Assembly: GCA_024641325.1 (NCBI GenBank)
Contig: JAHEDJ010000002.1
Span: 74,365 to 138,364, forward strand
Direction of reading: 5' to 3'
Length of the DNA stretch: 64,000 bases
Source: a bacterium
GTDB lineage: Bacteria; Actinomycetota; Acidimicrobiia; Spongiisociales; JAHEDJ01
The notes beneath the pieces were generated by a model. The model was not told where the DNA came from, made no database searches, and saw only the letters and a program-made list of their open reading frames with translations. A program made the translations under genes and the position numbers. Below are positions 1-31,372 of the stretch, piece by piece; positions within the stretch are counted from its first letter, which is position 1, and each line of letters starts with the position of its first letter.

Positions 1-420
1 ATCGGTATAACTGCCGATTCGCCGTTGGAGGGGAAACTCGAGGATCTGGCTCTCAGCATTGGCGCTTGCCCTTTCAAGCTCGAAGACGGCCGGCGCCCGC
101 TCTATCACGCGGCCGCCGCCTGCGCGGCGAACTACGTGCTGACCGCGCTTGCGCTGGCAGAAGAACTGTTCGAAGCTGCCGGAGTGCCGTTTGGATTGGC
201 CCGGCCGCTGGTTTCCGAGGTAATCGCCAATGCGTTCGATGTGGGGCCCCGTGATGCACTGACGGGCCCTATTGCCAGGGGCGATTTGGGGACGGTGGCG
301 GCGCAGATAGCGGCTGTGGCAGAGGTCGATCCCGACCTGGCAGCCGACTTCAAGGCGTTCGGCCGCGCAACTGCGAGGCTGGCAGGCGCAGACGCTTCGA
401 TGCACGAGATGCTCCGATGA
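1..420 (+). CDS. C-terminal fragment of a Rossmann-like DUF2520 oxidoreductase-type protein, the usual panC-upstream gene in Actinobacteria; its N-terminus lies outside the window.
   Basis: ORF 25..420 runs to the left edge. It has the TGPIARGD-type motif and an Ala-rich C-terminus, and its stop overlaps the panC start (ATGA) as in the mycobacterial panC neighbourhood. Confidence 0.5.
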   Translation: MGITADSPLEGKLEDLALSIGACPFKLEDGRRPLYHAAAACAANYVLTALALAEELFEAAGVPFGLARPLVSEVIANAFDVGPRDALTGPIARGDLGTVAAQIAAVAEVDPDLAADFKAFGRATARLAGADASMHEMLR

Positions 421-1310
421 AGATCGTGCAACGTTTCGCTGAAGTGCGGGCTTCGACCGCCGGCAGGCTGGGGCTCGTTCCGACGATGGGGTTCCTGCAC
501 GAGGGACATCTGGCTCTGGTCGACGCGGCACGTCGCGACTGTGACACGGTGGTGATGAGCCTCTTCGTGAACCCACTCCAGTTCGATGAAACGCGCGACC
601 TCTCTCGTTATCCGCGTGACCTGGATCGGGACGCCGAACTGGCAGAGGGCCGAGGTGTCGACGTTCTCTTTGCTCCCGAGCTCGATGAGATGTACCCGCA
701 GGAACCGCTAACGAGAGTGACCGTTTCCGGGACTACAGACGAAATGGAAGGCGCTCACCGCCCGGGCCATTTCGACGGTGTGGCGACGGTTGTCGCCAAG
801 TTGTTCGTTGGGATTAGAGCCGATCGAGCCTATTTCGGCAGAAAGGATGCGCAGCAGTTGGCCACCGTTACCAGGATGGCAGCGGACCTTTCGATTCCCA
901 TCGAGGTGGTTCCGGTGTCGATCGTACGGGAGCAGGATGGATTGGCGCTGTCGAGTCGCAACGTGTTTCTCTCATTAGACGAGCGCCGCAGAGCTTTGGG
1001 TATCTCAACGGGACTGATGGCAGCAGCCGATGCGGCAGAAGGCGGAGAACGGGATGGGTTGCAGCTCGAATCCATCGTGCGAGCTCGTCTCGATGGGGTT
1101 CTCATCGACTACGTTGCTCTGGCCGGGGCTTTGTCCGCCAGGAGGGTCGACAACCTGGAGGAGGATGCCGTCCTGGCAGTGGCGGCGCGGGTCGGTGAGA
1201 CCCGACTCATCGACAACGTGTTTCTGACCGTTCGCGGCGACACCATCGTCGCCGACCGCGGAACCCGGCTCGACGAACCGAGCATTCTGTACGCCGCACA
1301 CCGCGACTAG
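417..1310 (+). CDS. panC: Pantoate--beta-alanine ligase (pantothenate synthetase).
   Basis: Carries the VPTMGFLHEGHLALV (HIGH-like) and SLFVNPLQF motifs at a length of 297 aa. Confidence 0.9.
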   Translation: MKIVQRFAEVRASTAGRLGLVPTMGFLHEGHLALVDAARRDCDTVVMSLFVNPLQFDETRDLSRYPRDLDRDAELAEGRGVDVLFAPELDEMYPQEPLTRVTVSGTTDEMEGAHRPGHFDGVATVVAKLFVGIRADRAYFGRKDAQQLATVTRMAADLSIPIEVVPVSIVREQDGLALSSRNVFLSLDERRRALGISTGLMAAADAAEGGERDGLQLESIVRARLDGVLIDYVALAGALSARRVDNLEEDAVLAVAARVGETRLIDNVFLTVRGDTIVADRGTRLDEPSILYAAHRD

Positions 1311-1329
1311 ACCAAGCGTGACGACGCTC

Positions 1330-1357
1330 TCGCGATTCGCAATTCGCGATTCGCAAC
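1330..1357. repeat. Tandem heptamer array TCGCGAT-TCGCAAT-TCGCGAT-TCGCAAC in the panC-lysS spacer.
   Basis: A direct read gives four tandem 7-mers. Related arrays occur at 19602-19622, 53604-53631 (opposite orientation) and 62621-62655. Confidence 0.8.
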
Positions 1358-1405
1358 CGGCAAGCCAACGCCCGCGACCAGCTCTGGAACTAAGGTCTGT
1401 TCCCC

Positions 1406-2977
1406 ATGACCGACGAAAATCCGTCAGACGAATCGCAGGACATCCCAGAAGACGCCGGCCTCGCCGCGCACCCGATCACGGCGCGCCGACTCGAGAAGCT
1501 CTCCGAGATCCGGGATGGAGGCGGTGAACCGTATGCCTACCGCTTTGACCGTACGGCAACGGCCGCCGATCTGCATGCGGAGTACGGCGACCTGCAACCG
1601 GGGGCCGAGACCGGCAGGATTGTCGCGGTCGCAGGCAGAGTGCTCAATGTGCGTAGCTTTGGGAAGCTCATGTTCCCGGTACTCCTTGATCAGACGGGAA
1701 GGATTCAGCTGTTCGTCGCCAGCAACACACTCGGAGCAGATGAGTTCGAGCGATTCGGCGGCGTTGATTCAGGAGATTGGGTGGGTGCCGAGGGCGAGAT
1801 AATCACCACCAAGAAGGGTGAGCTCAGCGTTCGCGTCCAGTCGTGGGTGTTGCTTTCGAAATCGCTCCGACCTTTGCCGGAGAAGTGGCACGGGCTCAAA
1901 GATGTCGAACGACGCTACCGCCAGCGATATCTAGATCTCATTGTGAGCGATGAGGCGCGCCGCATCGCAATGACCCGGTCGCGGATTCTTGCAGAGCTTC
2001 GCAAACAGTTCACCGACCGCGGCTACATCGAGGTGGAGACGCCGGTGCTTCAGTCACAAGCGGGCGGAGCCCTGGCGCGGCCGTTTGAGACCCATCACAA
2101 CGCGCTCGACATCGACATGTATCTGCGTATCGCGACCGAACTCCACCTCAAGCGGTTGGTAGTCGGAGGGATGGAGCGCGTGTTCGAACTGGGCCGGATC
2201 TTCCGCAACGAAGGGGTGGACACGACACACAACCCCGAGTTCACGACACTCGAGGCCTATGAGGCATTCGCCGATTACCGGGACATCATGGAGTTGGTGG
2301 AAGAGGTAGTGGCGGCAGTGGCCGAGGCTGCGACCGGATCGATGCAGATCGAATACGACGGTCGACCGATCGATTTCACGCCTCCCTACCGGCGGGCCAC
2401 CCTGCTCGACCTGCTATCTGAGGCGCTTGGGGAATCGGTGGGGTTCGACCTGTCGCTGACGGAAATGCGTGATCTGGCCCTTTCCAAGGGCATCACGCCT
2501 GATGCTGCCTGGGGCAAGGGCAAGCTGATCACCGAGTTGTACGAACACCTGGTTGAACCGAATCTGTGGGAACCCATCTTCGTGATCGATCATCCGAAAG
2601 AAACGTCGCCCCTTGCAAGAGTCCATCGCCGGGACTCGAACCTGACGGAGAGATTCGAGTTGTTCGCAGGAGGTATGGAGCTGTGCAACGCCTTTTCGGA
2701 ACTCATTGATCCACTCGATCAGCGAGAGCGCTTCGAGCAGCAGGCAAAGGCGAAGGCCGCCGGCGACGAGGAAGCCCACCCGATCGATGAGGACTTCATT
2801 CGCGCGCTCGAATACGGTATGCCTCCGACCGGTGGTCTCGGCATCGGCGTCGATCGTTTGGTCATGCTTTTAACGGGGCAATCGACGATCCGCGAAGTCC
2901 TGTTGTTCCCGCATCTGAAGCCGGAGACCAGCAACCGGCGGCCGCCGCCGGATCAGAGCTCAACGACGATCGGGTGA
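1406..2977 (+). CDS. lysS: Lysyl-tRNA synthetase, class II.
   Basis: Has the class II motifs FRNEGVDTTHNPEFTTLEAYEAF and GGLGIGVDRLVMLL with an N-terminal OB-fold region, and the panC-lysS order is conserved in Actinobacteria. Confidence 0.9.
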   Translation: MTDENPSDESQDIPEDAGLAAHPITARRLEKLSEIRDGGGEPYAYRFDRTATAADLHAEYGDLQPGAETGRIVAVAGRVLNVRSFGKLMFPVLLDQTGRIQLFVASNTLGADEFERFGGVDSGDWVGAEGEIITTKKGELSVRVQSWVLLSKSLRPLPEKWHGLKDVERRYRQRYLDLIVSDEARRIAMTRSRILAELRKQFTDRGYIEVETPVLQSQAGGALARPFETHHNALDIDMYLRIATELHLKRLVVGGMERVFELGRIFRNEGVDTTHNPEFTTLEAYEAFADYRDIMELVEEVVAAVAEAATGSMQIEYDGRPIDFTPPYRRATLLDLLSEALGESVGFDLSLTEMRDLALSKGITPDAAWGKGKLITELYEHLVEPNLWEPIFVIDHPKETSPLARVHRRDSNLTERFELFAGGMELCNAFSELIDPLDQRERFEQQAKAKAAGDEEAHPIDEDFIRALEYGMPPTGGLGIGVDRLVMLLTGQSTIREVLLFPHLKPETSNRRPPPDQSSTTIG

Positions 2978-3534
2978 TCCACGGTGGCTCGGCCCCTCAG
3001 CGACTCGATTTCTTCGAGAAGCGATCCGGCCTGACGGTTCTCGCCATTCTGTACCGCCACCAGCGTGAATACGGCTCTCAGGGTCAGGGATTCCAGATGT
3101 TCGGACTCCAGTCGGAGGATCGTGGCCAGGCGATCGAGAAGTGCCGTGACCCCCTCGACCTTGAACTCCCTCAGCACGGCTACATAAGTCAGGTGATCGA
3201 GATGGCCGATTTTGTCGACGCCTCTCAATGTTGCGCTCATCACGGCTTCGAGGTGCTTGTCCAGCCAGCGGTGGTCGTCATCGGCTGAGGTCGGCGGATC
3301 TGGGAGTCCCTCCACCTCGATGAGAAGAATCCCGAACTGGTCCTTTCGTCGGGAAAGCCAGTTCAAGGCCTCCTGGATTGCATCGAGTAGACCGTTCCGA
3401 TTGAGCGTGCCGGATGCAGGGTCGATCGGAGACAGTACGTCCAGTGCAAGCCTTAGGCGGCGGATCTCTTCATCACGTTCGAAGAGCGCCTTTTCGATGT
3501 CTTCGGGTTCGTCGTTGGTGGGGTCAATATCCAT
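2953..3534 (-). CDS. Degenerate GGDEF-domain protein whose GG(D/E)EF motif is replaced by HLDHLT while the RxxD I-site (RGVD) is retained; a likely c-di-GMP binding effector rather than a cyclase.
   Basis: The GGDEF fold signature is visible (LNRNGLLDAIQEAL; ILLIEVEGL in place of the IDLD metal site; RGVDKIGHLDHLTYVAVL in place of RxxD...GGDEF). The ORF track extends to 3708, but that N-terminal extension is Arg/Ser-rich low complexity, so the internal ATG at 3534 (MDIDPTNDEPED...) is preferred. Confidence 0.55.
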   Translation of the reverse strand: MDIDPTNDEPEDIEKALFERDEEIRRLRLALDVLSPIDPASGTLNRNGLLDAIQEALNWLSRRKDQFGILLIEVEGLPDPPTSADDDHRWLDKHLEAVMSATLRGVDKIGHLDHLTYVAVLREFKVEGVTALLDRLATILRLESEHLESLTLRAVFTLVAVQNGENRQAGSLLEEIESLRGRATVDHPIVVEL

Positions 3535-3990
3535 TGGCAAGTCGAGGATAGTGATCACCGGCCGAATTCGTGCCTTATCGATAGCGCAAGCTTGCCGACT
3601 GGAGAGTCGTGCGGGCTCTGAAACGCAGGTTGATGAGGCCGACGACCGAAATCCGTCCCTCCGGGAGACATCAATGAGGATTGCCGAACAATTTCTGTCC
3701 CGGTTCATGGAGCAGGCGACCCTTCAGGCGAAAAGCCGTACCGTTGGTGAACCGGATTGCGCTCCAGCGCCCGGCCCTGATGCCCTTCCACCTCGGGTCA
3801 ACTCTGCTCACTCGGCTGCGCCCGTCGCTGAGCTCCAGAGGCGCACCGCCGCCTATCAGGCGACCGTTGAGGTTCTGTCGAAGTCACTCCAGCCTTCGCT
3901 GGTCGACTTCCTGAGATAACCGACGGGCTTCGCTCGAGCGCATAGTCCGTTGCGCGGCTCGAGGGCGGTTCCTTCGGTGAGATACCGGCC

Positions 3991-4431
3991 CTAGCAGGCT
4001 GCAGCTCGTCCGAAGGCAAGATGGGCTGCTTCCAATCGTTCCCGCGCAAGCCCGACGATCGAAAGCCTCAAGGAATCCACTGAGCGAGTGATCTCGAGCA
4101 GTTCGTCGAGGTCGGCTCTGAGGGCGATTGCCTGCTCGGGGTCTGACCGCTGGATGATGGCGCGGAGCGAGAAGTCGTATTCGGGTTCACCCCACAGGTC
4201 TGCGATCCCGGCGACGACGACGGCTCGGAGCACTTCGTTAGTACCGAGCTGCCGTTCGAGCTTGGCGATCTGCCGGGCCGCCGAAACAAGTGCGAGGTCG
4301 CGTTCGGAAGCAATCAAGGCCGCCATTTCCCCGAGTCTTGCTTCGAGTTCCACTAGAAGCCGGCGTTCACGATTGAGTATCTCCAGCAGGGAGTCGATTC
4401 CGGGCTGCTGGATGAGATTCAGTTCGTTCAC
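3991..4431 (-). CDS. Coiled-coil protein, FlgN-like or anti-sigma-like, lying divergent from the sigma-28 family gene.
   Basis: Predicted all-helical with a heptad-like Leu/Glu/Arg pattern (LLEILNRERRLLVELEARLGEMAAL). A GAGGAG Shine-Dalgarno sits 9 nt upstream of the GTG at 4431; the track start at 4449 is also a GTG. Confidence 0.5.
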   Translation of the reverse strand: MNELNLIQQPGIDSLLEILNRERRLLVELEARLGEMAALIASERDLALVSAARQIAKLERQLGTNEVLRAVVVAGIADLWGEPEYDFSLRAIIQRSDPEQAIALRADLDELLEITRSVDSLRLSIVGLARERLEAAHLAFGRAAAC

Positions 4432-4653
4432 GCGCGATCTCCTCTTCACGGCTCTCGTCTGATGGTTCCCGTCGGCGGGTTCCCGCGTACTTCAAGCCAT
4501 CATTTCGAAGTCCGGGCAAGGTGCATCATGAGAAGTCAAATGGAGCCTGTGCGAATAGGGCTCAAGAGGACCCTCCCGGGGTGCCGATGACAAGTGAAGC
4601 GCTACCAAGTATTCGCAGTTGTCTCCGGAGACAAGTCGAACAGGGACTGGACA

Positions 4654-5484
4654 ATGGCCGCCTTGGATCGAAACCAGCTGGCAGTCGAGCACATCGATCT
4701 CGTAGGTCACATCGTGGCTGAGGTGTCGGTTCGCTACCCACGTCACGTCGACAGGAAAGAATTGTGGAATGCCGGCGCGCTCGGCCTCGTCGAGGCCTCG
4801 AGGCGCTTCAACATCGAGAGCGGAGTTCCATTCGCTCGATACGCCGCCATCCGGATTCGGGGGGCGATCATCGACTCGACGAGATCTCGCGATTGGGCGA
4901 CCCGGTCCGTACGCAGGAATCTTCGTGAGATCCAGCAAGCGACATCGGATCTCGAAGAACGAACCGGCCGCCGTCCTGATGATGATGACCTCGCCGGCGC
5001 GCTGGGCATCACCGTCGCAGAGCTCTTGGACAGGCAAGCGCAGGCGAGTTACAGCACTCTCCTGCACCTAGATCAAGATGACTCGGAAGAGGCGCCGCTT
5101 CGAGACCAGGTAGCCGAAGAGCGCCCGTCGGTTCTCCCCGAGGAAGCACTCGAGAATCGCGAACTTCTGGGTACCCTCAAGGCCGCGATCGGGTTCTTAG
5201 CGCCGGCTCAAGCCGAAGTGGTCAGCCGTTACTACCTGTACGGCGATCTCCTGCAGGATATTGCCGACGATCTAAAGGTGACTGAAGCCCGGGTCTCGCA
5301 GATCCGGGCTGAGGCGCTGGCATCCATGCGGTCGTATTTCGCAACTCTCTACGAGGGCCTGCCGGATGTCGACGATTCTGCACCGGGCAAACGTGCAAGA
5401 GCGGCCTACCTGTCGGTGCTGTCGGAGAACACCACGTGGCGCTCCCGGCTGGAGCAGGATGAGCTTCTAACCACAGGTCCCTAG
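4654..5484 (+). CDS. FliA/WhiG-family (sigma-28 type) RNA polymerase sigma factor.
   Basis: Region 2 reads LWNAGALGLVEASRRFNIESGVPFARYAAIRIRGAIIDSTRSRDW, region 3 reads SVRRNLREIQQATSDLEERTGRRP, and region 4 reads YYLYGDLLQDIADDLKVTEARVSQIRAEALASMR. The start is taken at the internal ATG 4654 (MAALDRNQ...); the upstream Met at 4594 is less likely. Confidence 0.8.
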   Translation: MAALDRNQLAVEHIDLVGHIVAEVSVRYPRHVDRKELWNAGALGLVEASRRFNIESGVPFARYAAIRIRGAIIDSTRSRDWATRSVRRNLREIQQATSDLEERTGRRPDDDDLAGALGITVAELLDRQAQASYSTLLHLDQDDSEEAPLRDQVAEERPSVLPEEALENRELLGTLKAAIGFLAPAQAEVVSRYYLYGDLLQDIADDLKVTEARVSQIRAEALASMRSYFATLYEGLPDVDDSAPGKRARAAYLSVLSENTTWRSRLEQDELLTTGP

Positions 5485-5543
5485 GACTCGTTCCTATGCC
5501 ATCGACGTTTGATGCTTCGGGCCTCTGGTTTGCGGCCTAATGC

Positions 5544-6947
5544 TCAAGGCTCCTGCGTCTTGAACCCGCGACGCTCGAGAGTTCCCCAAGTGTGGTCCCC
5601 ACGCAGAGCCGAGAAGAGTCCGCGAATTCGCCACCAGGTAGCAAGTTGTCGATAGCCCAGGTTCTCGATGAACGCAACCAGTATCAAGCGTCCGAGATCG
5701 CGCGGGCGTGAGTATCGCTGGAACGACAGTTCTTCTAGAGCAACTGCCGCGACCGACAGAGCTACTCCGGCCGCCACCGCGAGGCCGAGGAATGCCAAGA
5801 TGTACGACATTGGAGCGACCCCTGCAATCAGCGCCCACAGAAAGACGACGAAGCCGGATGCCTCGATGAGCGGTCCGATGACCTCGAAAATGCCGTAGTA
5901 GGTGAATCCAATGAGCGCAGGCGGTCCGTAGAGGGGGTTGCCGAACATTTGCCGGTGCCGCCACAGGGTTTGGACCAGGCCGCGTTGCCAGCGGTTTCGC
6001 TGTCTGCCAAGGCTCCCCAAATCCTCCGGTGCTTCGGTCCACGCAACGGGGTCGGGGATGAAGGCGACCCGGTAGTCGATATCGTTCTCCCGGCAATGGC
6101 GGTGGAGTCGGACCACCAGTTCCATGTCCTCCCCGACAGTGTCGGTGGCGAATCCGCCTACGTCGACAACTATGCCTCGTCTAAAGACACCGAAAGCGCC
6201 CGAAATGATCAATGTTGCCCGAAGGACATCCCATCCAACCCGAGCCGCGAGAAACGCCCTGAGATACTCGACGACCTGGAACCGAGCGACCATGTTCTTC
6301 GGCAACAGGACCTGACGGACGATACCTCCGTCGACTACGCAGCCGTTGGCGATGCGCACGATGCCGCCCGCCGCCACGGTGTCGCGGTTCTCCAGGAAAG
6401 GCCGAACGAGGCGCGGGAGGGCTTCAGGTTCGAGCAGCGTGTCGGCGTCCATTGCGCAAAACAGAGGTGTTCTTGCGTAATTGAGACCTGCATTCAAGCT
6501 GTCGGCCTTGCCCCCGTTTTCCTTGCTGACGACCCAGAGGTTTGGATGGCGAGCGGCCCGGTGAACAGTCCTGACGGGCGCGGTGTGCAAATTGGCGCTC
6601 GGTGCACGAGCGGCCGGTTTGAGCTGGAATGCCTCGATCAGGCTGCCGAGGGTTCCGTCCGTAGAACCATCGTCCACGACGACTATTTCGTAGTCGGAGT
6701 ACTGAAGGGTGAGCAGCGAACGAACCGACTCGACGATGCCGGCTTCCTCGTTGAAAGCCGGGACAACGAGGGTGATCGGGACACCTCCGGCTGCGTTCAC
6801 CAGGTCTCCTATGTGTAACGACTTCAGCCTCCCGACGTACTTCTTCAGATCGATGAAGGCCAGAACGCTCGTCGTCATGTAGACGAAGTTCATGGCGAGG
6901 AAATAGACCAGAATCACCAGGCTCACTACGTATACGAGAGTGATCAC
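5544..6947 (-). CDS. Processive family-2 glycosyltransferase of the PgaC/IcaA/NodC/HAS-like membrane synthase type.
   Basis: Has DDGSTDGT, DAD (AMDADT) and QRNRWQRG (QxxRW) motifs, with one N-terminal and several C-terminal transmembrane segments, and overlaps the upstream HEAT gene by 4 bp. Confidence 0.85.
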   Translation of the reverse strand: MITLVYVVSLVILVYFLAMNFVYMTTSVLAFIDLKKYVGRLKSLHIGDLVNAAGGVPITLVVPAFNEEAGIVESVRSLLTLQYSDYEIVVVDDGSTDGTLGSLIEAFQLKPAARAPSANLHTAPVRTVHRAARHPNLWVVSKENGGKADSLNAGLNYARTPLFCAMDADTLLEPEALPRLVRPFLENRDTVAAGGIVRIANGCVVDGGIVRQVLLPKNMVARFQVVEYLRAFLAARVGWDVLRATLIISGAFGVFRRGIVVDVGGFATDTVGEDMELVVRLHRHCRENDIDYRVAFIPDPVAWTEAPEDLGSLGRQRNRWQRGLVQTLWRHRQMFGNPLYGPPALIGFTYYGIFEVIGPLIEASGFVVFLWALIAGVAPMSYILAFLGLAVAAGVALSVAAVALEELSFQRYSRPRDLGRLILVAFIENLGYRQLATWWRIRGLFSALRGDHTWGTLERRGFKTQEP

Positions 6948-8011
6948 GTGACCCCCCCGGCAATCATTTCTTGTGCCAGCGTCGATTGCGGAAGTTCGCT
7001 CTGTGCTATCTCGTGTAGCCGCTCACGGCCACCTGCTTCGAGGAGCGCACGGGCTGCGTTGATTGCGACCCATGGGTCGGCGTCGAACATCCCCAGCTCG
7101 AGCACTTCGATGTCGGAGGCGTCGCCGATGGTGCCGAGGGCACTGAGGGCCAGCGCTCTGAGTGTGTGGTCGCGACCCGACGCGTAGGTGCGGACAATTG
7201 ATACGTGCTCCGGACCCCCCACCGTCCTGAGCAGCCGGAGCAGAGCGGCAGCCAGCTCCCGGTTCGGGCTGCCGGTCAGCACCTTGACCGCTATGTCCCC
7301 GGCCACCGGATCCGTTAGAAGGCCGAGGGCCTCTGCGGCAACCGCCCTATCGATCGGGTTGCCCTCGGTCAGGAGAAAGGATCGGAGCGCGGGTGCCACC
7401 TCGACTCCGAGTGAGGCGAGCATGCTGGCCAGAAAACGACTGTTCCATTCCGAGTAGCGGTGCAGGTTCGAGAGCACTCTGACGATGTATTCCGGGTGAT
7501 GGGACCCGGCGAGAGACCGTGCGGCCACCATCGAGACGAGCGGAGAAGGATCATCGAGTGCCCGGGCGATTCTGGCCCCGTGCTCATCGATGCCCAATGT
7601 GGCGAGCGTCTGCACGGCCAGCGCTCTCCGTGAGGCCGAGCGGGCCTGCAGGTCTCCGAGAATGCCGGGCAGGACTGGTGCGGCAATGTCGGTGATCGTG
7701 AGGTTGTCGTTGCCGACCAGCAATCTGGCGTATCGCACCAGGAAGCGGAGGAAGTGTCGGGAAGACCGGGGAGTGACCGTGTTGAGTAGGTCGGATATTG
7801 GGAGTGACCCGGCCATTACCTCCAGGAGCAAGGGCTCCCAGGTTGCCTCGTAACTCGAGTAGCGACGTGCCCGTATGACGTTCCGGAACCGCATCGCGAA
7901 GGCGGAAGCGGCGAGGTATGCGACTACTCCGACGATAACGAGGGTCGACCACAGGACGACGCCAATGAGTGCCTCCGAGGCCCATACGGACGAGGTGCCG
8001 CCAGACCACAT
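6944..8011 (-). CDS. Membrane-anchored HEAT (PBS-lyase type) repeat protein.
   Basis: An N-terminal transmembrane segment is followed by at least five HEAT-like repeats (…DPSPLVSMVAARSLAG…, …NPIDRAVAAEALGLL…, …DADPWVAINAARALLEAG…). It is translationally coupled to the GT2 gene and sits 8 nt after the receiver gene. Confidence 0.7.
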   Translation of the reverse strand: MWSGGTSSVWASEALIGVVLWSTLVIVGVVAYLAASAFAMRFRNVIRARRYSSYEATWEPLLLEVMAGSLPISDLLNTVTPRSSRHFLRFLVRYARLLVGNDNLTITDIAAPVLPGILGDLQARSASRRALAVQTLATLGIDEHGARIARALDDPSPLVSMVAARSLAGSHHPEYIVRVLSNLHRYSEWNSRFLASMLASLGVEVAPALRSFLLTEGNPIDRAVAAEALGLLTDPVAGDIAVKVLTGSPNRELAAALLRLLRTVGGPEHVSIVRTYASGRDHTLRALALSALGTIGDASDIEVLELGMFDADPWVAINAARALLEAGGRERLHEIAQSELPQSTLAQEMIAGGVT

Positions 8012-8019
8012 ACCGGCGG

Positions 8020-8424
8020 CTACCGGGCCAGCAGTCGTTGTACCCTGAGGGCGAGTTCCGTAGGCGAGAAGGGCTTCAGTATGTAGTCGTCGGCGCCACC
8101 CGAGAGTGCGCGAACAACGTCCTGTTCCGTTCCCATTCCCGTCAACATCACCACTGGAATGGGTGCCAGCCTGGGGTCCTCCTTCAGACGGCCGAGTAGT
8201 TCAAAGCCGTCCATGCGAGGCATCTTCACGTCGAGAATCGCCAGCGAAAAGGGTTCGGAATCTGGAGCTTGGGCAGATTCGAGGGCGCTTTGGCCGTCTT
8301 GGCAGTGGAACACTTCGTAGCCCTCGCGCTCGAGGCGGTGGACGATCAGCCTGGCGGTAAGAGCATCATCCTCGGCGAGGAGGATTCTTGGGCGCTGGTT
8401 GGCCGGATTGGCCTCAGAGTGCAC
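8020..8424 (-). CDS. Single-domain CheY-like response-regulator receiver.
   Basis: Has LLAEDD, the phospho-acceptor [11 protein letters not shown], and VVMLTGMG...DYILKPF at 134 aa, with no output domain. Confidence 0.85.
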
Positions 8425-8606
8425 TCAGTCACCTCTTCTTCGTGTGCATAGTCTCTAAGTGGCTTGTCTCCTCGATCATTCGGAGCCGGTCACCTAGCCA
8501 CATCGTAGAGGGCGAAACTGAGTTAGCGGCGGACCGTTCCATAGCCTCGGGCGGTCCACTCACTTCGTGGCGCATGGCCCATTGCACACGGCTCACAGTC
8601 CGTTTC

Positions 8607-9665
8607 TTACCCGCTCATCGCTCGCGCGACTTCAACGCGGTCGATGAGGTAGGTTCCGAGGGACTTCAGAACATCACGCGCGGGCGAATCGGGCAGTTCG
8701 GCGATCGAGTCTTCCGCTACGGCGATTCGACGGGCAGCTTCGTTGAGGGCACCTTCGACATACCCGCCGGCACGGACCAGGCCGATGACCTCGGCCACCG
8801 CCTCGGGAGAGTACGGGCGCGCCGCGGTGAGCAACTCGCCGATGCGGGTTCCCTCCGGGCCTCGCAGAGCTTCGAGAACTGGGAGAGTGAACTTGCCTTC
8901 TGAGATGTCGGATCCGGCCGGCTTCCCGAGAAACGCATCGGTCGCGACGAGATCGAGGGCGTCGTCGCTGATCTGGAAGACGATTCCCAGTTCCCAGGCC
9001 CAGCGGCTGACTCGTTCAACATTCTCATCGGATGCATCGGCAGCCATTGACCCCAGCCGGGCGGCCGTCTGGATCAGGCTGGCCGTCTTGCCTTCGATCA
9101 CCTTGAAGTACTCGTCGGTGCCGTGGTGAATGTCCCAGTCGAGTTGCAGCTCGCGCGTCTGACCTTCAACGAGTTCGGCGTAAGTTCTGGCCAGAATCTC
9201 GACGGATCGCTGACCGAGCGTTTTCGCCGCTACCTCCGATGCTCGTGCCATCAGGAAGTCGCCGGCCAGGATGGCCACCGTATTGCCCCAGTTCGTGTTG
9301 GCAGAGGCCGTACCGCGCCTGGTCGTCGCCTCATCGATCACATCATCGTGATAGAGGCTTCCGACGTGGATCAACTCGACGGCGACGGCTGCGTCGATTG
9401 ATCTTTGATCGTCGGCCGGTCCGAACTCGGCGGCCAGCTGAGCGAGGAGAGGCCTGAAGCGTTTTCCACCTGCGATCAGCAGGTGCTGAGCCGCCTTCGT
9501 GAGAAACTCATCCTCGGACTGCGATACATCCAGCAGACGCGCTTCGACACGATCGAGCCTTTGCCAGATCTGCGGCAGTGGGACGAGATCTTCGAGGGTT
9601 GGAGCGTCCAATGTGCGACCTTCTGAGGAGATGCGGGCGCATGGTAGTGCGCTGCAGAAGAACAA
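8607..9665 (-). CDS. Polyprenyl diphosphate synthase (trans-isoprenyl diphosphate synthase).
   Basis: Carries the two DDxxD motifs (LIHVGSLYHDDVID and FQISDDALD) and the GKPAGSDISEGK motif. Confidence 0.85.
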   Translation of the reverse strand: MFFCSALPCARISSEGRTLDAPTLEDLVPLPQIWQRLDRVEARLLDVSQSEDEFLTKAAQHLLIAGGKRFRPLLAQLAAEFGPADDQRSIDAAVAVELIHVGSLYHDDVIDEATTRRGTASANTNWGNTVAILAGDFLMARASEVAAKTLGQRSVEILARTYAELVEGQTRELQLDWDIHHGTDEYFKVIEGKTASLIQTAARLGSMAADASDENVERVSRWAWELGIVFQISDDALDLVATDAFLGKPAGSDISEGKFTLPVLEALRGPEGTRIGELLTAARPYSPEAVAEVIGLVRAGGYVEGALNEAARRIAVAEDSIAELPDSPARDVLKSLGTYLIDRVEVARAMSG

Positions 9666-9809
9666 GGTTTCCAGGCCCGATTACGCAGGTCGCCGGGATC
9701 CCTGCCGACTGGTGTATTGCACCCATCTGGATTGCCGGGGGGTAGCGTTATACTCACCTCCGCGGCCGATAGACGGCCCATTGAGGAATTGGCAGGAGGC
9801 CACTAGACC

Positions 9810-12305
9810 TTGTTCGAACGCTTCACAGACCGGGCTCGAAGAGTTGTTGTACTTGCTCAGGAGGAGGCGCGCCTTCTCAACCACAACTACATCGGCACCG
9901 AGCACATCCTCCTCGGGCTCATACATGAGGGCGAGGGTGTAGCTGCGCGCGGTCTGGAGAGCCTCGGCATCAACCTCGATTCGGTCCGGCAGCAGGTTGT
10001 CGAGATCATCGGTCAGGGCCAGCAGGCTCCGAGTGGACACATCCCGTTCACTCCTCGTGCCAAGAAGGTGCTGGAGCTGAGCCTGCGCGAAGCACTCCAG
10101 CTCGGTCACAACTACATCGGGACGGAGCACATTCTGCTCGGCCTCATCCGCGAAGGTGAGGGCGTTGCCGCCCAGGTGCTTCAAAAGCTCGGCGCCGATC
10201 TTCCGAAGGTCCGCCAGACCGTCATTCAGCTGTTGTCCGGAGTCCAGGGCGATGATCAGCCCTCGGTGTCTTCTTCTGCGAAAGGTCGGTCCGAGCAACC
10301 CTCGGGCGGGTCAACCATTCTCGACCAATTCGGTCGCAACCTCACACAATCTGCGCGTGAGCAGAAGCTCGATCCGGTCATCGGTCGTCAGACAGAAATC
10401 GACCGGGTCATGCAGATTCTTTCGCGGCGCACGAAGAACAACCCCGTCCTGATCGGTGAACCGGGGGTCGGCAAGACCGCCATTGTGGAGGGACTCGCCC
10501 AACGCATCGTTGCGAGCGACGTTCCCGATACGCTGACGAACAAGCAGCTCTATACCCTCGACCTGGGTTCGCTCGTGGCCGGCTCCCGCTACCGGGGGGA
10601 CTTCGAGGAGCGCCTGAAGAAGGTTCTGAAGGAGATCCGCACACGGGGCGATATCATTTTGTTCATCGATGAGATCCACACTCTCGTCGGTGCAGGAGCT
10701 GCGGAGGGCGCAATCGACGCGGCCAGTATTCTCAAGCCGATGCTGGCTCGGGGTGAGCTACAGACCGTCGGCGCCACCACACTCGAGGAGTATCGCAAAT
10801 ACCTCGAGAAAGACTCGGCCCTCGAGCGTCGCTTCCAGCCCATCCAGGTTGAAGAGCCGACTGTCGCCGAGAGCATTCAGATTCTGCAGGGCCTTCGCGA
10901 TCGATACGAGGCTCACCACAAAGTCCGTTTCACCGACCAGGCGCTCGTCAACGCCGCCAACCTCGCCGATCGCTACATCTCAGACCGTTTTCTACCGGAC
11001 AAGGCCATCGATCTGATCGATGAAGCGGGCAGCCGCATGCGCATCCGGCGGAAGGGTGGTATGCCGGAGCTGGAGGAGCTGGACGACCGAATCTTTGAGG
11101 TCAGAACCTCCAAACTGGAGGCCGTGCAGTCTCAGCAGTTCGAGCGAGCGGCGCAGCTGCGCGATCAGGAACGGAGCCTCACATCCGACCGAATGGCCAG
11201 AGAGCGTGAAGCAACGGAGTCTGGCATTCAGTCCACCTGGGTGATCGATGAAGAGGAAATCGCCGAAGTCCTGGCACAGTGGACCGGGATCCCGGTTCAT
11301 CGCCTGACCGAAGAGGAAACCGCCAGGCTCGTCCGAATGGAGGACGAACTCCACAAGCGGATCATCGGGCAACACGATGCGATCGCGGCGGTCAGCCGTG
11401 CGATCCGTCGGACCCGGGCCGGGCTCAAGGACCCCAAGCGTCCTGCCGGTTCGTTCATCTTCCTCGGACCATCTGGTGTTGGAAAGACCGAGACGGCCAA
11501 GGCGCTGGCCGAGTTCCTGTTCGGCGACGAGGCCGCGCTCATTCAGCTCGACATGTCCGAGTACATGGAAAAGCACACGGTGAGCCGCCTGGTTGGGTCT
11601 CCGCCCGGATACGTCGGTTACGACGAAGGCGGTCAGCTCACAGAAGCTGTGCGTCGCAAGCCGTTCTCCGTCGTCTTGTTCGACGAGATCGAGAAGGCAC
11701 ATCCCGACGTCTTCAATACGCTTCTCCAGATCCTCGAAGACGGCCGACTGACCGACGCGCAGGGCCGAACGGTCGACTTCAAGAACACGGTCATCATCAT
11801 GACTTCCAACCTCGGCACCTCCGAACTGCGCAAGAAGGCAGTCGGGTTCCACAAGGGCGATGAGGAAGTCACCTACGAGTACATGAAAGAACGGGTTACT
11901 GAAGCCCTGAAGAAGAACTTCCGCCCCGAATTCTTGAACAGGATCGATGAGGTCATCGTCTTCCACGAACTCCGCAAGGACGAGGTCAAGGAGATCGTCG
12001 ATCTCATGCTGGCCAGGGTGTACGACCAACTGCAGTCGCAGGGCCTCCAGTTGGCGCTGTCCGACGCCGCGAAGGGATACCTGGCCGACAGAGGGTACGA
12101 CCCCGAGTTGGGAGCGAGGCCGCTGCGCCGGGCGATCCAGCGCCGGCTCGAAGACGCTTTGTCCGAGAAGGTGTTGCTCGGAGAGTTCCGTGCCGGAACA
12201 ACTATCGTTGTGGATGTCGATCCGGAGACGAACGAACTCGTTTTCGAGGACGTTGAAGCCCCGGATCAGCCACCGGTAGAGATGGTCGACTCGCAGGACT
12301 CGTAG
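9810..12305 (+). CDS. clpC: ATP-dependent Clp protease ATP-binding subunit ClpC.
   Basis: The N-terminus [21 protein letters not shown] matches ClpC1, with duplicated Clp-N repeats, two AAA+ modules ([15 protein letters not shown] and [15 protein letters not shown]) and a TTG start with AGGAGG 10 nt upstream. Confidence 0.95.
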
Positions 12306-12393
12306 CCAATCAGGTCATAGGTTCTGCGTTCCAGGTCAAGAGCCTCGCCCCACGCTGGGTGCTGGTGACGTCGCTCACTACACTCCCGGGCCC

Positions 12394-13071
12394 ATGACCG
12401 CCCGCTCTCTCGAAGTCACCCGCGCCTACAAAATCCTGACGATCGTTGTCTCGGCATATATAGCTGCGCAGGTGCTGGCCGACGTCGCCAGCCTCAGGAT
12501 TGTTTCTGTCGGTGGGTTCTCGGTGGACGGCGGCACGCTGATCTATCCGTTCACTTTCACGATCCGCGATCTTGTGCACAAGATCGCAGGCAAGGAGATA
12601 GCTCGCCTCGTGATCTTTCTGGCCGCAGGGATCAATCTGGTCATGGCCGGAGTGTTCCGGCTCGTGGCTGCGCTTCCGGCCGATCTCGAGGTCGGAACCC
12701 AGACTGATTTCGGCGCCGTGCTGGCGCCGGTGTGGACCATCGTGGCGGCATCGATCATCGCTGAAGTCGTTTCCGAGCTCGTCGATACCGAGGTCTATCA
12801 GCGGTGGGTGCGGAGCTTCGGTGAGCGGTGGCAGTGGGGCCGGGTTCTGGCCTCGAATACGATTGCCGTGCCCATCGATTCGGCTCTTTTCGTTTGGCTG
12901 GCGTTCGGTGGGCTACTTCCGGGTTCAGAATCGCTGGCGACCGACGTTCTGGTCAGCATCTTCTGGGCCAATGTGCTGATCAAGGGAGCGGTTACTCTCA
13001 TCTCCATTCCGTGGATCTATCTGGTTCGAGTTTCTCCGATAACTGTGGCCGAAAGCGCTCAGCCGGATTGA
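12394..13071 (+). CDS. yhhQ: YhhQ/DUF165-family queuosine-precursor transporter.
   Basis: A multi-transmembrane protein with IYPFTFTIRDLVHK and the characteristic length of about 225 aa. Confidence 0.7.
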   Translation: MTARSLEVTRAYKILTIVVSAYIAAQVLADVASLRIVSVGGFSVDGGTLIYPFTFTIRDLVHKIAGKEIARLVIFLAAGINLVMAGVFRLVAALPADLEVGTQTDFGAVLAPVWTIVAASIIAEVVSELVDTEVYQRWVRSFGERWQWGRVLASNTIAVPIDSALFVWLAFGGLLPGSESLATDVLVSIFWANVLIKGAVTLISIPWIYLVRVSPITVAESAQPD

Positions 13072-13140
13072 GCGCTCCGCGGGACTGTAGAATGGCTGAG
13101 GTGGGCACAGTTCCCACGCAACATAAGAAAGGATTCGTAG

Positions 13141-14340
13141 ATGCATTCCAAGACTTGGACGCGTCTCTTGGCGCTCGTAGCGGTCTTCGCACTTGTGCTG
13201 GCCGCGTGCGGCGATTCAACTGAAGACACAACCGAGACGACGGCGGCGGATACGCCGGCGACGACGGCAGCACCCGATACCACCATGGCCGATACTCCGG
13301 ACACCACCATGGCCGATACTCCGGACACAACGGCGGCACCGATGGCTGATGCCGTGAAGACGTGTCTGGTGACCGACTTGGCCGGTGTGGACGACCGTAG
13401 CTTCAACGCCAGTGCCTGGCAGGGTGTTGAGGATGCGATGGATGCCGGCTACGCGACGGCCGACTCGACCTATCTGGAGTCGAGCGACGCCTCGGACTGG
13501 CAGCCGAATATCGACCAGTTCATTTCGCAAGGTTGCGAGCACATCGTCACGGTCGGTTTCGCGCTCGGTGAGGTGACGGCGATCAACGCTGCTGCCAATC
13601 CGGACATCATTTGGACCATGATCGACAATGTCCTGACGGATGCGAACTTCGCCCCGCTTGGCCTTGCCAACGTGCGCGAGCTTGTCTATCAGACCGACCA
13701 GGCTGCCTTCGCAGCGGGTTATCTGGCAGCCGGCATGTCACAAACCGGTGTCTTGTGCACCTACGGTGGCGGCAACTTCCCGACGGTGTCCATCTTCATG
13801 GACGGATTCACTCGTGGAGCTGCGCACTACAACGACGTCAAGAGCACGAATGTCAACGTCCTCGGATGGGATGTTGATGCCGCGGACGGTACGTTCACAG
13901 GTAGCTTCACGGACATGGGGCTCGCCCGCCAGACGGCAGAGTCAATGTTCCAAGAAGGCTGTGACATGATTATCCCGGTCGGCGGTGCCATCAACTTGCC
14001 TGCCGGCGATGCCATCAACGATCTCGGCCTCGATGCGGCCCTGATCGGCGTCGACGCCGATGCGTATTTCGCGATGGATACGCAGTATCAGCCGCTCTGG
14101 CTGACGACCGTTGAGAAGGCGATCGCTCCGTTCATCACGTTGTCGGTTCAGGAGCACACCGAGGGCACATGGACAAGCGGTGCCTTTGTCGGAGATCTCA
14201 GCAACGATGGAGTCGGGCTGTCCGATTACCACGACTGGGACTCGCGAGTCTCGCCTGAACTCAAGGCAGAGGTCGAGCAACTCCTGCAAGATATCAAAGA
14301 CGGCGTCATCAAAGCTGACTTCACGCCCGTCGGTTACTGA
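13141..14340 (+). CDS. BMP-family (PnrA/Med-like) ABC transporter substrate-binding lipoprotein, probably nucleoside-binding.
   Basis: Has a signal peptide with lipobox LAAC-G, a Thr/Asp/Pro-rich linker and the BMP fold motifs. A TAGAAT -10 lies at 13097-13102. Confidence 0.85.
   Translation: MHSKTWTRLLALVAVFALVLAACGDSTEDTTETTAADTPATTAAPDTTMADTPDTTMADTPDTTAAPMADAVKTCLVTDLAGVDDRSFNASAWQGVEDAMDAGYATADSTYLESSDASDWQPNIDQFISQGCEHIVTVGFALGEVTAINAAANPDIIWTMIDNVLTDANFAPLGLANVRELVYQTDQAAFAAGYLAAGMSQTGVLCTYGGGNFPTVSIFMDGFTRGAAHYNDVKSTNVNVLGWDVDAADGTFTGSFTDMGLARQTAESMFQEGCDMIIPVGGAINLPAGDAINDLGLDAALIGVDADAYFAMDTQYQPLWLTTVEKAIAPFITLSVQEHTEGTWTSGAFVGDLSNDGVGLSDYHDWDSRVSPELKAEVEQLLQDIKDGVIKADFTPVGY
13283..13336. 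repeat. Tandem 27-bp in-frame repeat (x2) encoding TTMADTPDT in the lipoprotein linker.
   Basis: Direct read: accaccatggccgatactccggacacc occurs twice. Confidence 0.8.
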
Positions 14341-14444
14341 GCCGAATAGGTATTCACAATTCGAATGGGACCCCCATGATGGGGGTCCCATTCCTCTAAG
14401 CGGGGTCGTCTCCGACGTTGTAGGGTTCTGGTTGAGCGACACTT

Positions 14445-15974
14445 GTGGAGGGTCGGTTGAGGCTCGAGCTGAAGGGCATCACTAAGCAGTTCCCGGGCGT
14501 ACTTGCCAACGACGACGTCCATCTGAGTGTCGGCGAGGGTGAGATCGTGGCTCTGCTCGGCGAGAACGGAGCAGGCAAGACCACTCTCATGAACATCCTC
14601 TACGGGCTCTACACGCCGACGTCCGGTGAGGTGCTCATCGACGACGAGCCGCTCGAACTCCACTCGCCGAGCGACGCCATCGCCGCCGGAATCGGCATGG
14701 TCCACCAGCACTTCATGCTCGTTCCGGTGTTCACGGTCGCTGAAAACGTGATTCTTGGTGACGAGCCTGCGAAGAGGGCCGGATGGCTGGATAAGCAGCG
14801 AGCGCGCAAGACGGTGCGTGATATCTCCAGCCGCTACAAGCTCGATGTCGATCCGGACGCGGTCATCGAGGATCTTCCGGTCGGCATTCAGCAACGGGTC
14901 GAGATCATCAAAGTGCTCGAACGCGAGGCGAGATTCGTTGTCTTCGACGAGCCGACGTCGGTGCTCACACCGACGGAGGTCGAGGGTTTCTTCAACATTG
15001 TGAACGGACTGAAGAACGACGGCAAGGGAATCATCTTCATCAGTCACAAACTGGGTGAGGCACTGGAGATCGCAGATCGCATAGTCATCATGCGCCGCGG
15101 TAGGACCGTTGCCGAGGTGCTGCCTGCTGACGTCGACGAGGAGAAGCTGGCGGAGCTGATGGTTGGGCGGCCTGTCGACCTCCGGGTACACAAGGAGGAG
15201 GCGACTCCGGGAGATGTCGTGCTCTCGGTTGAACACCTCGTTGTTCTCGACGATCGACATCAGCGCGCCGTCGATGGGCTCTCTCTTGAAGTCCGCGCCG
15301 GCGAGATTGTGGGAATTGCCGGCGTTCAGGGGAACGGGCAGACGGAACTCGTTGAATCGCTGACAGGAATGCGGCCATCCCTCGGCGGCATCGTGCGGCT
15401 CAACGGCGAAGACATCACGACCAACTCGCCTCGGTCGATCCACAAACGAAACGTCGCCCACGTTCCCGAGGACCGCCAGAAGAGCGGCCTGGTTCTGTCT
15501 TTCACGGTAACCGAGAACATCGTGCTGGACTCCTATTACGAGGCCCCCGTCTCACGGGGAATCCTGATGAACTGGAGCGCCGCCGAGGAGCGTGCTCTGC
15601 GACTGGTGGAGGAATACGACGTGCGAACGCCGAGTGTCGATGTCGCAGTTTCGACGCTTTCTGGCGGAAACCAGCAGAAAGTCATCGTCGCGCGGGAGTT
15701 CGACCGTGATGTCGCCCTGGTGATTGCGTCCCAGCCAACTCGCGGCATCGACGTCGGATCTATCGAATACATCCACTCTCGAATCGTCGAAGAGCGCGAC
15801 AACAACGCCGCGGTGCTCATAGTCTCTTCGGAACTGGATGAGATCACGGCCCTGTCCGATCGTATTCTGGTGATGTACGACGGAAAGATCGCAGGCGAGT
15901 TCGACCCGTCGGCCTCCACCACAGAGATTGGACTAGCAATGTTGGGCAGCCAGGGAGAGGCGGGTGCAATGTGA
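14445..15974 (+). CDS. ABC transporter ATP-binding protein with duplicated ABC domains, part of the BMP/nucleoside system.
   Basis: Has two Walker A sites (GENGAGKTT and the second half) plus LSGGNQQK signatures at 509 aa, with a GTG start. Confidence 0.9.
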   Translation: MEGRLRLELKGITKQFPGVLANDDVHLSVGEGEIVALLGENGAGKTTLMNILYGLYTPTSGEVLIDDEPLELHSPSDAIAAGIGMVHQHFMLVPVFTVAENVILGDEPAKRAGWLDKQRARKTVRDISSRYKLDVDPDAVIEDLPVGIQQRVEIIKVLEREARFVVFDEPTSVLTPTEVEGFFNIVNGLKNDGKGIIFISHKLGEALEIADRIVIMRRGRTVAEVLPADVDEEKLAELMVGRPVDLRVHKEEATPGDVVLSVEHLVVLDDRHQRAVDGLSLEVRAGEIVGIAGVQGNGQTELVESLTGMRPSLGGIVRLNGEDITTNSPRSIHKRNVAHVPEDRQKSGLVLSFTVTENIVLDSYYEAPVSRGILMNWSAAEERALRLVEEYDVRTPSVDVAVSTLSGGNQQKVIVAREFDRDVALVIASQPTRGIDVGSIEYIHSRIVEERDNNAAVLIVSSELDEITALSDRILVMYDGKIAGEFDPSASTTEIGLAMLGSQGEAGAM

Positions 15975-30994: not shown

Positions 30995-31372
30995 TTACAA
31001 GAAACTAGCGACCAGCAGCAACACAGCGGAGGCCGTCAAGAGCACAGGGCAGATCTTGAACCAGATCACGGCAGTCCGAGCACCAGTGACTGAGGTCAGA
31101 ACCGCCAGACCGAGGAGCAGGCCTGCCACGGCGCGGTAAACCCACGCTGCTACGGAGGTTCCGCTCCCTTCCAAAGTGGCCACCACCACGATTGCGGCCA
31201 GGCCCCACATCGTGAAAGCTTCTGCAAGCCACTCCTGGGTCAGAACGCGCCGATTGTCGGGCTCGATCGGAGCGAATCCGGCAATCACCTGTCGCGTCGG
31301 GATGGCATGGGCCACCCCCCAAAGGGCGACAAGCACGGCAGCTACGTAAGCAAGCACCGAAGCCATGCCCAC
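30995..31372 (-). CDS. Small three-to-four-transmembrane membrane protein.
   Basis: A hydrophobic 125-aa ORF. Confidence 0.4.
   Translation of the reverse strand: MGMASVLAYVAAVLVALWGVAHAIPTRQVIAGFAPIEPDNRRVLTQEWLAEAFTMWGLAAIVVVATLEGSGTSVAAWVYRAVAGLLLGLAVLTSVTGARTAVIWFKICPVLLTASAVLLLVASFL

Follow-up and report, generated by a model that had tools for sequence, protein, structure and literature searches.

A receiver, a HEAT-repeat protein and a family 2 glycosyltransferase encoded as a conserved trio: a candidate type of synthase-dependent polysaccharide system

Introduction

What controls a membrane-embedded polysaccharide synthase that is encoded beside none of its usual partners? The question is raised by a three-gene locus at positions 5544 to 8424 of a 64,000-nt stretch of contig JAHEDJ010000002.1 (assembly GCA_024641325.1, positions 74,365 to 138,364), referred to here as the window, by which the whole stretch is meant. 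The locus encodes a CheY-like receiver, a HEAT-repeat protein with a membrane anchor and a family 2 glycosyltransferase (GT2), and a preliminary description of this DNA had singled it out as an exopolysaccharide (EPS) synthase operon of unusual composition. Synthase-dependent EPS systems are central to biofilm biology and, to our knowledge, all of the well-studied ones (cellulose, poly-N-acetylglucosamine (PNAG), alginate and Pel) are gated by cyclic di-GMP (c-di-GMP).

The trio was found to recur well beyond this contig, and we read it as one membrane machine, an uncharacterised type of synthase-dependent polysaccharide system in which the HEAT-repeat protein would be an obligate co-subunit or adaptor of the synthase and the phospho-receiver would switch the synthase. 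We put the probability of this reading at roughly 0.55. The evidence for it comes from the gene order and its conservation, the features of the three proteins and the genes that accompany them in related loci.

Gene order and conservation

All three genes lie on the minus strand, in the order receiver (8424..8020, GTG start, 134 aa), HEAT-repeat protein (8011..6944, ATG start, 355 aa) and GT2 (6947..5544, GTG start, 467 aa). In the window sequence the TAG stop codon of the receiver gene is separated by 8 nt (ccgccggt) from the ATG of the HEAT gene, and the HEAT stop codon and the GT2 start codon have the letters GTGA in common, a 4-bp overlap. Independent gene calls on contigs carrying identical proteins (L089-L091) gave products of 134, 355 and 467 aa, the same as in the window. 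The three genes and their tight coupling are as the preliminary description had them.

Relatives of the GT2 were surveyed by scanning one genome per species, and the best 80 loci were used for neighbourhood scoring with hidden Markov models of the families. Relatives were found in at least 588 species genomes, and thousands exist at about 60% identity. The best 80 loci come from Acidimicrobiia and other Actinomycetota, Gemmatimonadota (including Longimicrobiales), Neomarinimicrobiota, Rhodothermales, Salinibacter, Balneolaceae, Gracilimonas and other Bacteroidota, as well as from Sericytochromatia, Elusimicrobia, Lentisphaeria and Myxococcales. Although the host of the window is an Acidimicrobiia-like metagenome-assembled genome (MAG), the system is mainly one of Gemmatimonadota and the FCB-group phyla and is not peculiar to Actinomycetota. 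A cultured bacterium, Gracilimonas sp. Q87 (L077), is among its carriers.

A HEAT gene was found directly upstream of the GT2 gene and on the same strand in 71 of the 75 evaluable loci, representing at least eight phyla, and in 64 of these 71 a receiver domain ends no more than 200 nt from the HEAT start. In 52 of 74 loci a start codon in frame with the GT2 shares 4 nt with the HEAT stop codon, and 70 of 74 loci have such a start codon within about 10 nt of the stop. The reverse search, which started from the HEAT protein and covered metagenome contigs, gave the same picture, with the GT2 gene immediately downstream in 52 of 53 cases and a receiver upstream in 60 of 61. These figures put the arrangement far beyond chance, and the trio that had been described from a single locus is thereby found conserved elsewhere. 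Pairwise protein distances were also correlated (GT-HEAT, r=0.90; GT-REC*, 0.76; HEAT-REC*, 0.74; Mantel p=0.001 for each, REC* being the receiver orthologous to that of the window), from which we infer that the three genes are inherited as a unit.

The glycosyltransferase

The GT2 matches the Pfam families Glyco_tranf_2_3, Glycos_transf_2 and Glyco_trans_2_3 with E-values of 1e-18 to 1e-26. The motifs DDGSxD (DDGSTD in the window copy, with D93 and D97), DAD (D167-A-D169), GEDME (G272-E-D-M-E276) and QRxRW (Q316-R-N-R-W320 in the window copy) are all invariant among 75 homologues. Four residues of a C-terminal WGxxxRxGF tail (W454, G455, R459 and G461) are likewise invariant in the 75 sequences, and F462 is invariant in a 14-sequence alignment (A1). 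The AlphaFold model (predicted local distance difference test score (pLDDT) 86) opens with an N-terminal transmembrane helix and a GT-A domain; the interface helix with QRNRW comes next, and transmembrane and amphipathic helices make up the C-terminal part. The QRxRW motif sits in helix 310-330, and the C-terminal tail is disordered with low pLDDT.

The top Foldseek matches of the model in the Protein Data Bank (PDB) are hyaluronan synthases (HAS) of Chlorella virus and Xenopus, BcsA and chitin synthases (CHS), the alignment with HAS extending over about 470 columns (E 1e-15, TM-score 0.54-0.68). Enzymes of the DPM type matched the model only partially. Searches of PDB sequences with the GT2 protein and with its profile found no close solved relative. 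Judged by its motifs and predicted fold, the GT2 belongs to the superfamily of processive membrane-embedded synthases (BcsA/HAS/CHS/PgaC), and a grouping with DPM/DPG-type enzymes, which had been named as the outcome that would speak against a polysaccharide synthase, was not observed.

The assignment to a PgaC/IcaA/HAS type made in the preliminary description holds at the level of fold and fails as family membership. PgaC_IcaA (NCBIfam TIGR03937) is the nearest curated family, but the GT2 scores 130.8 bits against it, in two stretches, where the cut-off is 422.3, and its identity with E. coli PgaC amounts to 26% across 312 aa. Since the score lies so far under the PgaC/IcaA cut-off, we regard the GT2 as a distinct subfamily. 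One homologue of 804 aa (P0102, 60% identity) has phage-integrase domains annotated in the same protein and is possibly a gene-call fusion at a mobile-element junction.

The HEAT-repeat protein and the receiver

The second protein contains a Pfam HEAT_2 match (E 1.1e-14) behind an N-terminal transmembrane helix, in agreement with the anchored HEAT-repeat protein that had been proposed. Its AlphaFold2 model (pLDDT 93.4) begins with a helix at residues 10-66, comprising the transmembrane and juxtamembrane parts, and continues as a helical solenoid of about nine HEAT-like hairpins (about 18 helices). With its tandem helical hairpins the protein is a HEAT/ARM alpha-solenoid. A Foldseek search with this model returned generic solenoids only (alphaRep, importin-alpha, PP2A-A and CpcE/F). 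The family is about 355 aa long and shows 35-100% identity across phyla; when grouped at 50% identity, about 1,177 of its representatives reach E<=1e-30.

An arginine-rich positive cluster (RFRNVIRARR) follows the transmembrane helix, and some homologues carry a signal peptide and a periplasmic SH3_3 extension ahead of it. Both features indicate an N-out/C-in topology, which would place the solenoid in the cytoplasm. P0216 begins with a hydrophobic segment resembling a signal peptide and has a bacterial SH3_3 domain ahead of its transmembrane helix, and P0211, also of the HEAT family, has a shorter N-terminal extension without a Pfam domain; these extensions suggest that some versions of the protein sense or bind something outside the membrane.

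The receiver consists of a Pfam Response_reg domain (E 2.7e-27) at residues 14-128 of 134, with no output domain or other domain, and so is the stand-alone receiver that it had been taken for. Its best NCBIfam matches are PhoB-type receivers, and its sequence is of the OmpR/PhoB type. The acidic pocket (D19/D20), the phospho-acceptor D65, T95 and K117 are all present, and these residues are conserved in 58-59 of 59 orthologous receivers (D65 in 58 of 59, K117 in 59 of 59 and a threonine or serine at position 95 in 59 of 59). The protein is a CheY-like single-domain response regulator.

Compared with the window protein, the receivers found beside HEAT in other phyla reach 100-206 bits (120-144 at the itemised loci), and other receivers at the same loci score about 17-67 bits. 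On these scores the neighbour of the HEAT gene is a specific orthologue of the window receiver, and it is this orthologue that we call REC*. In relatives it has a gene of its own or forms the C-terminal domain of REC-X-REC* proteins. The closest relatives of the locus, with a GT2 82% identical to that of the window, have receiver gene products of 274-318 aa (L004, 6099-6923; L005, 412-1368), whose N-terminal extension holds a GGDEF-like remnant. The 134-aa receiver of the window therefore looks like a trimmed protein of the REC-X-REC* type.

Partner genes in related loci

Hybrid histidine kinases, Hpt proteins and extra receivers adjoin the core in Gemmatimonadota, Longimicrobiales and Neomarinimicrobiota. 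Of 65 REC-adjacent proteins, 17 have a GGDEF domain as the X part of REC-X-REC* and five have an Hpt domain there. The GGDEF domain fused to REC* is intact in Neomarinimicrobiota (RxxD and GGEEF); in Gemmatimonadota and Longimicrobiales it is degenerate at the A-site and the I-site is missing too. The three Sericytochromatia loci (L041, L049 and L055) are laid out differently, with a longer HEAT protein (about 500 aa) encoded divergently from the GT2 and with the receiver, fused to a GGDEF domain that is degenerate and keeps its I-site, encoded downstream on the opposite strand.

A gene for tetratricopeptide repeats (TPR) and a YaiO-like beta-barrel (PF19413, E 2e-20) adjoins the GT2 gene in about 29 loci, whose phyla are generally taken as diderm. 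It usually lies directly downstream of the GT2, as in L012, L015, L017, L023, L026, L030, L032, L033, L036, L051, L056, L064, L067, L073 and L077. Other Gemmatimonadota have large TPR proteins at their loci. In two cases the GT2 and the barrel are joined in one open reading frame (ORF) (L046, 7992-10484; P0051, 720 aa). To find an enzyme of the inner membrane linked to a barrel of the outer membrane is odd, and the joining may reflect a frameshift or a real fusion.

Synthase-dependent EPS systems are typified by a synthase that is encoded with a TPR/barrel exporter, and with the TPR/barrel gene of the diderm relatives the trio has that layout of synthase, accessory subunit and exporter. Indirectly, these downstream genes also lend support to processive polymerisation by the GT2 that would be coupled to translocation of the product. 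The locus of the window has the three-gene core only and no TPR/YaiO barrel gene, and its host, which is near Acidimicrobiia MAGs, is presumably a monoderm.

Pfam searches were run on the three trio proteins and on selected flanking ORFs at 25..5484 and 8607..17179, and no PilZ, PgaD/IcaD, BcsB, deacetylase or porin was found in them. Nor was a PgaD-like or deacetylase family found in the window neighbourhood or in the clusters of neighbouring genes that recur across the loci surveyed. The preliminary description was accordingly correct that the usual partners are lacking at the window locus; its statement does not extend to the porin, for which the diderm relatives do have a partner in the TPR and YaiO-like barrel protein.

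In E. coli K-12 (L088, 380069-384616) the yaiO barrel gene lies beside yaiP, the IS2-disrupted acyltransferase gene yaiX and the deacetylase-like yaiS. YaiP, the GT2 encoded beside yaiO, is only 23% identical to the GT2 of the window. The arrangement has the appearance of a cryptic polysaccharide cluster with a barrel of the same family.

Neighbouring genes in the window

The operon is flanked by housekeeping genes, namely those for a polyprenyl synthase (9665..8607), ClpC (9810..12305, identified solely from its synteny with L004), LysS (1406..2977) and a pantoate ligase. The polyprenyl synthase gene and the receiver start are separated by an intergenic gap of 182 nt (8425..8606), which is the putative promoter region of the operon on the minus strand. 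A Shine-Dalgarno-like GAGGTG is found 7 nt ahead of the GTG of the receiver gene. A scan of positions 5300-8800 gave no promoter-like site and no match to the sigma-70 consensus, so the promoter is placed in the gap by inference; terminator-like sites in the same interval were as many as expected by chance.

The preliminary description had also placed a sigma-28-like factor and a degenerate GGDEF protein next door, and both were recovered. The sigma factor is FliA/WhiG-like and is encoded on the plus strand at 4594..5484, convergent with the GT2 gene, with 168.9 bits against TIGR02479 where the cut-off is 189.6. On the identical contigs it was called as 276 aa, which gives a computed start near 4654. 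Among the loci with annotated neighbours it follows the GT2 only in the close relatives L004 and L005 and in the identical contigs L089-L091, and no sigma family was found in the neighbour clusters that recur across the loci surveyed. Because of this restriction the sigma factor is not counted in the conserved module.

The GGDEF protein (3540..2953, minus strand, about 195 aa) is a stand-alone domain that came to light with an iterated profile. A Pfam search of the ORFs at 2953-3708(-), 3212-3919(+) and 4088-4462(+) had given nothing even at E<=1, a false negative as far as the degenerate GGDEF is concerned; a jackhmmer search from a bona fide GGDEF seed recovered the protein at E 4e-6 in round 2 and at 6e-25 finally. 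The plus-strand ORF at 3212-3919 overlaps it, is of low complexity and is probably spurious. The protein retains the I-site as RGVD and has DHLTY in place of GGDEF, and a conserved counterpart is present in L004 (12220-12807), which is syntenic. Its sequence makes it a candidate c-di-GMP receptor, with a tentative link to the trio.

Between the GGDEF and sigma genes, and divergently paired with the latter, lies a gene for a helical protein (4449..3991, minus strand, 146-152 aa) with a weak Pfam match to FlgN. It was considered as an RsiG-like anti-sigma factor and rejected, as inspection of the translation by eye did not reveal the motif E-x3-S-x2-R-x3-Q-x3-D, which we take to be the c-di-GMP motif of RsiG. 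Farther away, a GAF-GGDEF-EAL protein (51543..48973, minus strand, 856 aa) has RxxD and GGDEF intact. No other canonical protein of c-di-GMP turnover was detected in the 64 kb, and this one shows that the organism uses c-di-GMP. The window also encodes a wax-ester synthase/DGAT of 469 aa (47355-48764, minus strand) and a protein of 720 aa whose C-terminal part is a GT4 domain (31365-33527, plus strand).

Proposed mechanism and competing explanations

In the machine that we propose, the GT2 would polymerise a UDP-sugar at the cytoplasmic face of the membrane and would probably also be the translocase, the chain being threaded through its transmembrane and interface-helix region as in HAS, BcsA and PgaC. 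The HEAT protein would be co-translated with the GT2 in fixed proportion and anchored alongside it by its single transmembrane helix, which would hold the cytoplasmic solenoid next to the catalytic domain. As an obligate co-subunit or adaptor it would be akin to PgaD, IcaD and the BcsB anchor, with a large protein-binding surface in addition. The receiver would be phosphorylated at D65 by a kinase encoded elsewhere in the host genome, and would then dock on the HEAT solenoid, the GT domain or both and turn synthesis on. That the proteins form a physical complex, that the receiver activates synthesis, that the product is secreted and that a UDP-sugar of some kind is used are predictions of this scheme, as is the gating by the tail described below.

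The likeliest target of the switch would be the invariant and flexible WGxxxRxGF tail of the GT2. The tail is proposed as the controlled element because extended peptides are typical ligands of HEAT and ARM solenoids, and because the equivalent loop is a regulated gate in BcsA and is indispensable in HAS. The gating loop of HAS (WGTRG / WGTSGRK/R) enters the active site, contacts UDP and is essential (PMC11750622), and the tail of the GT2 resembles this nucleotide-coordinating loop. A c-di-GMP layer would be added in many lineages by the GGDEF domain to which the receiver is fused, and in the window it may be supplied by the nearby degenerate GGDEF protein with its intact I-site. Control by phosphorylation and a scaffold, with c-di-GMP as a possible second input, would fit the canonical receiver, the recurrent GGDEF domains, Hpt proteins and hybrid kinases, and the degenerate GGDEF protein nearby. 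A bolder version, in which the trio, joined in diderms by the TPR/YaiO barrel, forms a distinct and widespread class where a two-component phosphorelay gates the synthase directly and c-di-GMP is not required, and in which the HEAT protein reads the phosphorylated receiver and then releases the tail or positions it over the active site, is put forward only tentatively.

Several observations weigh against one machine under the control of the receiver. The contact between receiver and enzyme would be deduced from gene adjacency and co-inheritance, and the distance correlations could stem from shared phylogeny alone. Some loci have no adjacent receiver (L063, L066, L069, L083 and L084), and these, together with the rearranged layout of the Sericytochromatia, mean that the receiver is not strictly obligatory. 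No histidine kinase turned up when the 64-kb window was searched with three hybrid kinases of related loci, and a second receiver was likewise not detected there, which makes the window receiver an orphan. The GT2 appears to have only about three transmembrane helices plus interface helices, fewer than HAS or BcsA, and the enzyme may therefore not form a channel on its own. Finally, one locus from a Salinivenus MAG (L071, 6469-7983) has the receiver and HEAT in a single 504-aa frame in the order REC-TM-HEAT (TM, transmembrane helix), the sole apparent fusion of the two. It was discounted as a true fusion, as a receiver ahead of an N-out transmembrane helix is topologically implausible, and it probably results from a lost stop codon or read-through, or from an assembly error.

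Among the competing explanations, the one that survives best takes c-di-GMP as the real allosteric switch. The receptor would be the HEAT protein or the interface between GT2 and HEAT, comparable to the PgaC-PgaD interface, and the receiver would control a diguanylate cyclase or serve as a phosphate sink. The known synthase-dependent systems (Bcs, Pga, Alg, Pel and Nfr) are c-di-GMP-gated, and the fusions of GGDEF to REC* in 17 of 65 proteins, with RxxD and GGEEF intact in Neomarinimicrobiota, point the same way, as do the degenerate GGDEF protein and the GAF-GGDEF-EAL protein of the window. The conserved core is nevertheless REC*-HEAT-GT2: a GGDEF domain is detected only in those 17 of the 65 proteins and is absent from the window receiver, and in Gemmatimonadota and Longimicrobiales its A-site and I-site are both degenerate. 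The stand-alone REC* still keeps all of its phosphorylation residues, and neither HEAT nor GT2 contains a PilZ, an MshEN or another known c-di-GMP-binding domain in Pfam. We therefore consider this explanation unlikely.

It is also conceivable that the HEAT protein is a purely structural subunit of the synthase, like PgaD, IcaD or the BcsB anchor, and that the receiver acts on the GT2 or elsewhere with no step from receiver to HEAT. The coupling of HEAT to the GT2 is indeed tighter than its coupling to the receiver (4-nt overlap in 52 of 74 loci; r of 0.90 against 0.74), HEAT is retained in the loci without an adjacent receiver, and its transmembrane helix could complement the few of the GT2. 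A conserved cytoplasmic solenoid of about 290 residues, however, exceeds the needs of a membrane anchor, and the receiver gene abuts the HEAT gene in 64 of 71 loci and in 60 of 61 of the reverse search, which makes a HEAT protein without a part in signalling quite improbable.

The weakest alternative, in which the product is no secreted EPS but a short oligosaccharide (as with NodC) or a membrane or cell-wall glycoconjugate and the trio controls envelope remodelling, could appeal to the roughly three predicted transmembrane helices of the GT2, to the absence of export and modification genes from the Pfam-tested ORFs of the window and to the motifs shared with NodC-type enzymes (NCBIfam NodC match, E 1.7e-7), but it is very doubtful given that the whole-length structural matches are translocating synthases, that in many diderm relatives, as in the Pga, Bcs and Nfr systems, the next gene downstream of the GT2 encodes an outer-membrane TPR/barrel protein, and that GT2-barrel fusion ORFs (L046 and P0051) occur.

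Comparison with characterised systems

By curated sequence family the trio is nearest to PgaCD/IcaAD, which likewise have a GT2 with DxD, a catalytic E/D, QxxRW, flanking transmembrane helices and a C-terminal W...(D/E)R.G tail, a co-transcribed membrane partner that the synthase needs (the small PgaD/IcaD) and, in diderms, a TPR/barrel porin encoded alongside. It differs in lacking PgaD/IcaD and PgaB/IcaB, and its partner is a 355-aa HEAT solenoid instead of a small protein with two transmembrane helices. The adjacent regulator of the trio is a phospho-receiver, whereas that of Pga is c-di-GMP at the PgaC-PgaD interface, and the GT2 of the window has family-specific insertions at about 105-135 and 195-215.

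BcsA-BcsB also combines a processive GT2 with a single-TM-anchored partner, a gating loop under a regulatory module and a TPR/barrel porin (BcsC), and its TED/QxxRW region is the best PDB sequence match of the window GT2 over the catalytic-to-transmembrane part (E 1e-8). The window system, in contrast, is without PilZ, BcsB and FFCGS-type motifs, and control of Bcs is exerted by c-di-GMP via PilZ. The class I HAS of Chlorella virus and Xenopus (HAS1), single-polypeptide synthase-translocases, are the best structural match and have a Trp-Gly...Arg gating element that contacts the nucleotide (PMC11750622). Identity to them is just 13-15%, the window GT2 has GEDME where HAS has GDDR, and it has fewer transmembrane helices. 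The WG...R..GF element is a free C-terminal tail in the window GT2, whereas in HAS it is a loop between the interface helix and a further transmembrane helix; HAS moreover needs no protein partner and has no receiver.

The NfrB-NfrA-YbcH system of E. coli resembles the diderm versions in having an inner-membrane GT2, an outer-membrane TPR/barrel and a locally acting signal input. NfrB differs in its C-terminal c-di-GMP-binding domain, and it has neither a HEAT partner nor a receiver. A relationship of the window GT2 to NfrB was rejected, as the two align over the N-terminal nucleotide-binding part only (27% over 148 aa, E 0.002).

The only comparable case that we found of a receiver switching an enzyme is that of Myxococcus xanthus, where EpsW, a phosphorylated single-domain response regulator, directly binds and activates the EPS glycosyltransferase EpsZ (PMC12802240). 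The target in that case is a monotopic phosphoglycosyl transferase of a Wzx/Wzy pathway and not a processive GT2, a HEAT adaptor is absent, and the two genes do not form the core of an operon with translational coupling. No publication on a receiver-HEAT-GT2 system was found in the full-text literature, in which subscription journals are partly covered, and the impression that this wiring had not been described before is to that extent upheld. The new part appears to be the conserved accessory pair and the two-component input on a synthase-dependent polysaccharide system, for which function, polymer and mechanism are predicted.

Implications

If the proposed reading is true, the trio would add a synthase family whose conserved partners are a phospho-receiver and a HEAT co-subunit, and would broaden a view of these systems that is centred on c-di-GMP. 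It would provide a testable example of kinase-to-enzyme control of polymer secretion and a new type of synthase accessory subunit. The module is common in abundant and little-studied environmental phyla (Gemmatimonadota, Marinimicrobia, Acidimicrobiia and Rhodothermota), most of whose members are uncultured, and it would offer a way to study how soil and ocean bacteria produce their matrix. The cultured carrier Gracilimonas sp. Q87 makes the system experimentally tractable.

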